Virus record (IMG/VR): IMGVR_UViG_2513237361_000003
Location: 1-23,100 of that record
Length of the DNA: 23,100 nucleotides
From: a virus
Taxonomy: Duplodnaviria > Heunggongvirae > Uroviricota > Caudoviricetes
Reading direction: 5' to 3' (one strand)
In this document: piece after piece, positions 21,135-21,933 of the stretch
How positions within the stretch are numbered: position 1 is the first letter of the stretch
How the letters are laid out: every line of letters starts with the position of its first letter
Notes under the pieces: model-generated
Told to the model about the DNA's origin: nothing
Database searches by the model: none
Seen by the model: the letters and a program-made list of their open reading frames with translations, nothing else
Made by a program: the position numbers and the translations under genes

Positions 21135-21927
21135 TTCTTCTATCAGCTAATAATCAAAGGCATGAAGTCTATCATCCAAGTCTCAATCGATCGATGACTT
21201 GCTGTGGTTGATGAGACAAAACTGATGCACACAAAGCTTTGCACTGGATTGCAAGGCTTTGTGCTATTCGATAGTTGTTAAGGTGGATCACTACGGCTTT
21301 TCATCAATCCAGTCCGCCCACCACTGCATCATTTCTCTGCGCTTAATGTAGCGGATGCCTCACTATCACATAGTGATGGTTCATTACTGCTTTGTAGAAT
21401 GGATAGGGAACTGAGGATAAAAAGATATCCCAAAACCCCAAAATCTCATCTTTAGGATTTGCAGAAAGGGAGGCGTGAACAGATACCTGCGCATGAAGAC
21501 GGAACTAGTCCAGATGTGATATTTGTGGTGATCACATACATCATCAACGATGCTCGTTATGGTGAGTTTGATGACTACCCGCTGAAGTGAAAATAGTGTT
21601 GTGTACCAAATTGCGTACCAAACTAAAATCACAAATCATGAAACCCTTGTTCATGGCGGTTCTCAGGGGTATTGCGCGTAATCGTGAAACAAAAAGGTAG
21701 ATTGTTGCTTACCGTCATTCATCATTAGGTTAAATCCGTTATTTCTGCTGTATGCCAGAGTACCAAATATCACAACGCTAATCAGCTTTAGAGCGACAAT
21801 TTGGCAGCGTGTGGAAACAGATAATGTCAGATTAAAATGAGATAAATGTCACATTTTCTTGCACTTTATTCCAGCCAGTTCATCAGGATTTCCGTAAAAA
21901 GAACAGCTATTTGAAACTCCTGAGGAT
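21135..21927. other. non-coding region holding the gtr promoter, the prophage right attachment junction and the host dacD upstream region
   Basis: About 790 bp with no credible ORF. Inverted-repeat cluster at 21227-21274; GATC sites at 21189, 21286 and 21530; GTACCAAA repeats at 21603, 21615 and 21760. The exact attachment core cannot be placed without an empty-site sequence. Confidence 0.4.
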
Positions 21928-21933
21928 TTGCTG

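Follow-up and report, generated by a model that had tools for sequence, protein, structure and literature searches.

The best known phage attachment site with two classes of integrase (Int) binding site is that of lambda. Lambda Int is heterobivalent and its attP carries, besides the core, the arm-type sites P1, P2 and P'1-3, which are recognized by a separate N-terminal domain. Sites for the integration host factor (IHF) are a feature of lambda and not a requirement of the heterobivalent class. Closest in sequence to the locus described here is the module of phages 2851, Sf101 and mEp234, which is known from E. coli or Shigella; its attachment site in the gene sbcB has already been described and the 13-bp core is published (PMC4159516). 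For phage Phi24B a minimal attP of 350-427 bp was measured and IHF was found to be dispensable (PMC7581858). Here we analyze a 23,100-nucleotide stretch of tailed-phage DNA, in the following called the window (positions 1 to 23,100 of IMG/VR record IMGVR_UViG_2513237361_000003), and in it the interval 21135-21933, which exactly fills the space from the gtrA start to the TTG codon at which dacD begins. This interval is, with near certainty, the attR of a gtrABC-carrying P22-like prophage that has integrated into sbcB. We further suggest that a pair of short repeats left of the junction are arm-type sites of Int, and the two parts taken together are very probably right.

The locus shares with the module of 2851, Sf101, mEp234 and HK544 the identical core CGTAATCGTGAAA and 91-96% DNA identity over window positions 21214-21706. 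This stretch matches the attP regions of mEp234 (annotated as "prophage attachment site, type 2851"), of Sf101 and of the Stx phages 1717 and 2851. In contrast to these phages the host is Escherichia marmotae. The neighbor of the module is also a different one, namely gtrABC of the HF4s/SfIV-like type, where Sf101 has oacB, 2851 has stx and mEp234 has a siphovirus tail-fibre gene. For the module, PMC4159516 gives the 13-bp core and describes neither arm sites nor a rebuilt sbcB N-terminus nor gene relics; this refers to that report and not to the original description of 2851. With the serotype-converting phages SfV, SfII, SfX and SfI (thrW) and Sf6 (argW) our prophage has the virion and gtr cargo architecture in common, with the conversion genes beside attP. 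Unlike in these phages there is no tRNA at the junction, and another integrase, of the HF4s type, survives only as a relic of 17 codons.

The junction in sbcB and the rebuilt target gene

The junction was located by comparison with empty sites, for which conspecific genomes were found by exact match to the DacD protein of the window. In two of these genomes (L018 and L020) an intact sbcB of 475 aa abuts dacD. The prophage-free L020 is 100% identical to window positions 21677-23100, and the identity begins exactly at 21677 and not earlier. The sequence-only reading of this DNA had put the end of the prophage somewhere between 21135 and 21933. The empty-site comparison bears this out and narrows it to 21677-21689. 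At these positions lies the 13-bp att core CGTAATCGTGAAA, the crossover region, which is present as a direct repeat at both prophage ends. We also aligned the window with attP of mEp234 and Sf101, three other attR sequences and one E. coli empty site. The 13-bp block CGTAATCGTGAAA is common to attP and attB and is followed by 17 bp which are imperfectly similar (21690-21706, host-type in the window, with four differences between attP and attB). The phage attP homology ends at the core or slightly beyond. The core has the same sequence as the one published for attP of phages 2851 and Sf101 (PMC4159516). In attB it is embedded in a quasi-palindrome, GTTTC-GTAATCGT-GAAAC, a shape that would be expected of core-type sites flanking the overlap region.

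The target is a protein-coding gene. sbcB is annotated at this position in the empty-site genomes, and on the minus strand the core reads TTT CAC GAT TAC G, that is, F13, H14, D15 and Y16 of sbcB and the first base of E17. The F-H-D-Y-E segment encoded here we take to be the first acidic exonuclease motif of exonuclease I. The earlier idea of an anonymous non-coding target upstream of dacD has to be abandoned, as the phage uses the 5' coding region of sbcB, which is divergent from dacD and is a published integration site. In the literature sbcB is routinely typed as a site of Stx prophages. Purely host sequence makes up only 244 bp of the interval (21690-21933); within it, 21726-21933 is the native divergent intergenic region between sbcB and dacD and is 100% identical in the prophage-free L020. 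In a megablast search of 5,426 complete E. coli genomes nearly all match only 21677-21933, overlapping the annotated sbcB, and at least 80% of the whole attR interval is matched in 457 of the 5426.

The other end of the prophage could be read from a sister strain. Contig AARMWB010000002.1 carries the same prophage and is 99.97% identical to window positions 11933-23100 (11 kb). In its attL the 13-bp core recurs at a distance of 40,145 bp from the copy at attR, which provides the direct repeat shared by both ends that the sequence-only reading had proposed to look for. On this contig a chimeric sbcB adjoins an Int of 392 aa. Arm-DNA-bind_3 and Phage_integrase domains are called in this Int. The integrase of the 2851-type module is a tyrosine integrase of the P4-like kind; Pfam recognizes its N-terminal arm-binding domain as Arm-DNA-bind_3 (residues 4-85, E = 8e-18), besides the catalytic domain Phage_integrase. 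The Int of the sister strain is at least 99% identical to the integrases of both reference phages, with 392 of 393 aligned positions identical to mEp234 (stop included, 99.7%) and 391 of 393 identical to Sf101 (99.5%). At three further attL loci of E. marmotae (L032, L033 and L036, positions 1641-2537) Int is called at only 298 aa and lacks Arm-DNA-bind_3. This suggests that these prophages are N-terminally damaged in Int and possibly grounded.

At attR a stub of 20 codons is left of sbcB (21663-21725, minus strand). From 21725 the minus strand reads ATG ATG AAT GAC GGT AAG CAA CAA TCT ACC TTT TTG TTT CAC GAT TAC; these 16 host codons encode MMNDGKQQSTFLFHDY and are followed by four phage-derived codons and a stop (AQYP*). 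In attP the minus strand right of the core encodes MTDTDKQPTFLFHDY, and the attP version of the 17-bp stretch is part of this replacement N-terminus of sbcB. At attL the look-alike 5' end MTDTDKQPTFLFHDYE replaces MMNDGKQQSTFLFHDYE, by which a full-length sbcB frame of 474 aa is rebuilt. The corresponding attL gene of E. coli EC50, also 474 aa, is annotated by PGAP as an intact exodeoxyribonuclease I. The SbcB chimera predicted for E. marmotae is found exactly on 32 contigs, where it is named exodeoxyribonuclease I of Escherichia marmotae. As native SbcB is found on 242 contigs, the lysogen-type chimera accounts for 32 of 274, or about one in nine contigs.

Integration thus proceeds as follows. 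Strand exchange in the core leaves the sbcB promoter together with 16 codons at attR, fused to phage DNA as a dead stub. At the other end the P' arm of the phage supplies a replacement 5' end, by which the host gene is preserved. The phage sequence preceding the look-alike ATG presumably provides the promoter for the rebuilt sbcB. A scan of 21050-22000 for promoter and terminator consensus sequences gave no sites, which does not argue for promoters at sbcB, dacD, gtrA or the hairpin described below. The orphaned sbcB promoter at attR would point in the same direction as gtrA, gtrB and gtrC (21725 to 18546, minus strand). Between the sbcB stub and gtrABC there are only gene debris and a hairpin (21263-21230). 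Host-driven read-through from the orphan promoter into gtrABC in lysogens is conceivable, and we mention it as a speculation.

Related integrase remnants are also found beside sbcB in Pantoea anthophila (L011, 54% identity over the first 35 residues) and in Pantoea rwandensis (L013, read directly from the sequence). In both, sbcB 5' coding sequence of the phage type is present. Thus, sbcB is used as an att site beyond Escherichia.

As a discovery the junction carries little weight, since sbcB is a standard prophage insertion site in E. coli and Shigella. The locus documents the 2851-type module in Escherichia marmotae. It is also a worked example of a phage which targets a coding segment for a conserved catalytic motif (F-H-D-Y-E) and brings along a replacement for the start of the gene.

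Repeats in the attachment site as candidate arm-type sites

The window contains the octamer GTACCAAA only three times, always on the plus strand, at 21603, 21615 and 21760. The sequence-only reading had given the positions correctly and had considered all three copies as possible arm, core-flanking or host regulatory sites. For the pair at 21603 and 21615 a role as arm sites has become very plausible, and the third copy turned out to be native host sequence. Both copies of the pair (21603-21610 and 21615-21622) belong to the phage DNA on the left side of the core, at distances of 74 and 62 bp from it. They form part of two tandem 12-nt units, TTGTGTACCAAA and TTGCGTACCAAA (21599-21622, plus strand), which we propose as putative Int sites of the P arm. 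The non-random part of the repeats is this duplicated 12-nt unit TTGYGTACCAAA (repeat D9) and its conservation; the pair is invariant in all six type-2851 att sequences aligned.

A complete attP is available from mEp234. In the 5.5-kb locus of this phage the motif GTACCARA occurs five times, always in attP and in a single orientation. Only 0.24 copies are expected, and none of 200 shuffled sequences reaches five. Two of the copies are left of the core and three are 165-206 bp right of it, the last ending 9 bp before the ATG of int. The attL of the sister strain has the same three sites.

The arrangement extends to more distant phages. We compared relatives whose Int is 49-61% identical and expressed the repeat positions relative to the int ATG. 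In mEp234 the P-arm pair is at -301 and -289 and the P' trio at -50, -39 and -16. In Stx2 phage 86 the corresponding positions are -296 and -284 and -52, -41 and -17, and Phi24B has the same pair and trio as phage 86. Klebsiella phage P12620-1 has its pair at -302 and -290 and its trio at -50, -39 and -15, and Cronobacter phage ENT39118 at -280 and -268 and at -38, -27 and -7. For the int remnant beside sbcB in Pantoea rwandensis the trio is at -49, -38 and -15, and the P-arm pair was not recovered. The layout of two plus three repeats is kept in the Int relatives although the core and the intervening DNA are unrelated. The motif itself drifts (GTACCAAA, GTACATAA or GTACAGAA, GTACTAAA), whereas GTAC and the spacings are constant. 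Fixed positions without conserved surroundings are the signature expected of arm-type sites. We consider it quite probable that the GTACCAAA-type repeats in the phage DNA are such sites, and propose them as candidates. Int would then bridge core and arms by means of two sites in the P arm and three sites in the P' arm upstream of int, and the functional P arm would be only about 90-150 bp long.

This arrangement resembles that of lambda in that there are two arm repeats on one side and three on the other, which are distinct in sequence from the core. It is unlike lambda in several respects. The integrase belongs to the P4-like Arm-DNA-bind_3 subfamily, and IHF consensus sites are lacking. The geometry is a mirror image of that in lambda: the short arm bears the pair, and the trio is found beside int at a distance of about 165-206 bp. 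Finally, the target is inside a protein-coding gene which is repaired by the phage. Another close system is that of Phi24B, together with Stx2 phage 86 and P27. The integrase of Phi24B is 56% identical, and int is divergent from an AlpA-like xis. Like our prophage, Phi24B has two plus three GTAC-centered repeats; their distances to the int ATG hardly differ, and they span about 290 bp. In contrast to the module described here, Phi24B does not use sbcB and has a different core and attB, and its repeat motif is GTACA(T/G)A instead of GTACCAAA.

A search for the IHF consensus WATCAANNNNTTR with up to one mismatch found no site in window positions 21590-21730. In mEp234 attP there is a single match with one mismatch, which coincides in part with a repeat of the P' arm. 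Both the roughly 290 bp spanned by the repeats and the lack of IHF-consensus sites are compatible with the attP length and the IHF independence of Phi24B. If the assignment is true, this span together with the distant trio would explain why the attP of Phi24B is unusually long (350-427 bp). It is an even call whether the GTAC-centered repeats may be, in general, the arm-type sites of the Phi24B/2851/P27 integrase family, which have not been described before. The Phi24B/2851 family carries Shiga-toxin and O-antigen-conversion genes, and the map of its candidate arm-type sites is the one modestly useful result beside the junction. The arm-site architecture which the prophage appears to have in common with the Phi24B family is its only mildly new element.

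int and the rebuilt sbcB diverge from a region of 181 bp, and within this region lies the trio (positions 3139-3180 of the mEp234 locus; also seen in the attL locus L038). Int bound there could affect the expression of sbcB, and, if the trio is correctly assigned, its location over the 5' region of int would let Int regulate its own gene.

Another protein might bind to the repeats. They could be sites for an AlpA-like excisionase or for a host factor, or the trio could represent operators or promoter elements of int. The trio indeed occupies -50 to -9 relative to the int ATG, and a promoter, an operator or a 5' untranslated region would be located there. Moreover, in vitro recombination of Phi24B needed crude cell extract and integration took place in himA (IHF-deficient) cells, so that another host protein may act (PMC7581858). 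However, the repeats are present on both arms in one orientation and in the same two-plus-three count as in lambda, the integrase has a recognized arm-binding domain, and excisionase sites are normally confined to one arm. We therefore regard this explanation as unlikely. An accessory protein might bind between the arm sites and the core, where we read from the sequence the inverted repeat CATGAA-N7-TTCATG (21637-21655). Its outer arms CATGA/TCATG are kept in Sf101 and L010 and the inner bases vary. We suggest it as a candidate site for an excisionase or a host factor.

The third GTACCAAA copy (21760-21767) lies in host DNA, 35 bp upstream of the ATG of sbcB. We considered it as an arm site on the host side and rejected it, since it is present in prophage-free E. 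marmotae, since E. coli, lysogens included, reads GTATCAAA in its place, and since it matches no repeat position of attP. The third copy is a coincidence and has no role in integration.

Several observations weigh against the interpretation of the interval as an attR in sbcB with arm-type repeats. The crossover is placed only to within the 13-bp core. A degraded attL in E. coli ECMA0423 (L016, CP178302.1), whose Int breaks off at residue 107, is of the host type over 15 bp right of the core before it changes to phage sequence; there, either the exchange took place further right or gene conversion followed later. Neither the int gene nor attL is part of the window; for both, the sequence of the near-identical sister strain was used. 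We infer from the intact reading frame that the rebuilt sbcB would be expressed and active. With regard to the repeats, the number of GTACCAAA copies in the window is marginally above chance (0.51 expected; at least three copies in 4 of 100 shuffles), and the arguments for arm sites are layout and conservation only. The Int-binding sequences in the attP of Phi24B were stated to be unknown in 2020 (PMC7581858).

Gene debris on the phage side

The sequence-only reading had described the interval as about 0.8 kb of non-coding DNA upstream of dacD. It is correct that there is no intact gene, but the interval contains the relics of two genes as well as the 16 codons with which sbcB begins. The phage part is a mosaic. 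The region upstream of gtrA (21135-21213) belongs to the gtr module and is common to phages of the HF4s/SfIV type and not to mEp234, Sf101 or 2851. Homology of the 2851 type begins at 21214, and homology to SfIV and HF4s extends to 21260 and 21345, respectively; in HF4s, a P22-like phage, the homologous counterpart of 21135-21345 is the junction of gtrA and int. Two palindromes, TCGATCGA (21183-21194, which contains GATC) and CTATTCGATAG (21264-21275), are located upstream of gtrA. Only three GATC sites occur in 21100-21940 (21189, 21286 and 21530). In P22 the gtr operon has a phase-variation switch that depends on Dam and OxyR.

The first relic (21291-21344, minus strand) consists of the last 17 codons and the stop of an HF4s-type int (KRREMMQWWADWIDEKP*), which differs from the 2851-type int. 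With the Int of HF4s as query, tblastn matched KRREMMQWWADWIDEK at 21344-21297 on the minus strand (15 of 16 residues identical, E = 3e-7), and a proline codon and the stop (21293-21291) follow this match. A short way downstream of the stop is a hairpin with a 14-bp stem (21230-21263, minus strand; inverted repeat I1, 93% complementary). Its predicted folding energy is -21.6 kcal/mol (z = -3.6) and none of 200 shuffled sequences is as stable. In all probability this hairpin was the terminator of the former int gene, but it has no canonical T tract and the scan for terminators did not pick it up.

The second relic is a humD/umuD-like pseudogene (21339-21590, plus strand). It is truncated at the 5' end and corresponds to residues 46-127; the frame is interrupted by a TAG (21453-21455) and closes with the stop codon of the gene itself (21588-21590). 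By tblastn, 82 codons in a single frame of 21339-21584 match residues 46-126 of the UmuD-like protein of phiKO2 with 60% identity (E = 7e-32), and the relic is 55% identical to HumD of P1 (E = 5e-30). In another strain (L007) this piece is annotated by PGAP as a HumD pseudogene. An intact copy of humD is found in phage HK639, between the tail-fibre gene and int. Antisense to the relic an 82-aa open reading frame (ORF) is annotated (21384-21632, minus strand), which is a "hypothetical protein" in Sf101. Pfam gave no match for this ORF or for the 44-aa humD fragment, and the fragment was identified only via tblastn with intact HumD and UmuD proteins.

In other prophages at the sbcB site the homology to the window starts only at 21458 or 21527. 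Therefore, none of 21214-21457 is needed for integration. We propose that 21214-21590, with the terminator hairpin, the integrase relic and the humD pseudogene, is inert debris which travels with the module among lambdoid phages. It has to be considered whether the block still encodes something functional, be it the 82-aa protein, a truncated HumD-like peptide or a small RNA. An 82-aa coding sequence is called here in Sf101 and in some E. coli annotations, a plus-strand ORF of 35-43 aa is called in E. marmotae contigs, and the block is kept in many unrelated phages. On the other hand, the 82-aa ORF is without Pfam match and antisense to a clear humD frame, from which the 45 N-terminal residues are missing and which is interrupted by a stop. 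The block has no Rfam match and other prophages at the same site are without most of it. A function is accordingly very unlikely.

The same doubt could be raised for the adjacent GTACCAAA pair, which might be due to chance or to a recent 12-nt tandem duplication and be a functionless hitch-hiker. In favor of this is the only marginally significant count in the window; in addition, the close relatives are more than 90% identical throughout, so their conservation says little. However, the positions are conserved even where the flanking DNA can no longer be aligned and the identity of Int falls to 49-61%, and attP has 5 copies against 0.24 expected. We give this explanation slightly less credit still than a function of the debris.

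A palindrome TCACTAT-CAC-ATAGTGA had been noted at about 21370 as a possible integrase or regulatory site. It is present close by, at 21360-21376, but is unlikely to be an att element. It is about 300 bp from the core, within the humD pseudogene, where it encodes SLSHSD, and its palindromic form is not conserved. Its 7-bp arms are one of 34 inverted pairs which the repeat finder gave in the 799 bp. As a pair of lambda-like arm motifs (TCACTAT) the palindrome was rejected because it is part of the reading frame of the relic, at this distance from the core, and lies outside the block common to all prophages at the site; furthermore, it is broken and degenerate in phage 1717.

The integrase relic also accounts for the resemblance to a tRNA 3' end. 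The tRNA-like stretch ATCCAGTCCGCCCACCA is located at 21307-21323, and CCAGTCCGCCCACCA in it is the antisense of TGG TGG GCG GAC TGG, that is, of W-W-A-D-W in the C-terminal part of the relic. The sequence-only reading had called the likeness superficial and had found no tRNA target; both judgments hold, and the stretch has no role in integration. In the tRNA scan proposed there, ARAGORN found no tRNA or tmRNA in the whole window, and Rfam gave no family at E <= 1 in 20700-22300. That a tRNA, tmRNA or other RNA gene is the target and was missed by the scans, the overlap with sbcB being incidental, could be argued from the use of thrW or argW by relatives of the P22, SfV and Sf6 type (cited in PMC4159516) and from the CCA-ending stretch at 21307-21323, but this is already refuted by the empty site, in which sbcB runs without interruption across the junction; in addition, the scans were negative, and the CCA stretch, antisense to the relic, is located 350 bp deep in the phage DNA. 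Thus "non-coding" DNA beside att sites can consist of fossil genes that mimic tRNA ends or regulatory palindromes.

Prophage, host and neighboring genes

The prophage is a P22-like phage (Lederbergvirus type) of about 40 kb which carries gtrABC, and its host is Escherichia marmotae. The assignment to the P22-like phages is based on Pfam matches in the window, namely Head_binding (E = 6e-43; tailspike), GtrA, GT2, a DUF2142/YfdI-like GtrC and Arc/Mnt, and on the locus of the sister strain, in which P22 gp7, gp16 and Inj_translocase were called. The order is that of P22-type virion genes followed by the tailspike with the P22 head-binding domain and by the gtrA-gtrB-gtrC operon beside the att site. 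Between the gene for the gp16-like injection protein and the tailspike gene are a 173-aa ORF without Pfam match (15509-16030, minus strand) and the gene of a 99-aa Arc/Mnt-type repressor (16065-16364, minus strand). This region (15509-16364) corresponds to the immI-like region of P22 relatives.

The left bound of the interval is gtrA (20772-21134, minus strand, 120 aa), the first gene of the gtrABC operon for O-antigen glucosylation. The protein matches GtrA_DPMS_TM of Pfam (E = 1e-13), and the DNA is 86-91% identical to gtrA of HF4s, SfIV, SfII and SfV. The right bound is dacD (21934-23100, plus strand, 388 aa), whose TTG start is that given by PGAP in the aligned genomes. The DacD protein of the window has exact matches in E. 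marmotae genomes. The host part of the window (dacD and intergenic region) is about 91% identical to E. coli and 99-100% identical to genomes including CP099351.1, which is listed as E. marmotae (PMC12299893). The source names of the SbcB proteins are likewise E. marmotae.

Other P22-like prophages occupy the same sbcB site in E. marmotae (L019 and L021, 7926-9185 in locus coordinates). In these, a 419-aa TPR-repeat protein and a 789-aa tailspike replace gtrABC, which shows that cargo is swapped beside one att module. The nearest E. coli match to the interval (95% identity) is in strain EC50 (L008, 38340-40725). It belongs to a prophage remnant of about 9 kb which keeps only int, a partial xis, a tailspike-like gene and gtrABC and is interrupted by IS30 and IS3; here the conversion genes were kept while the phage decayed.

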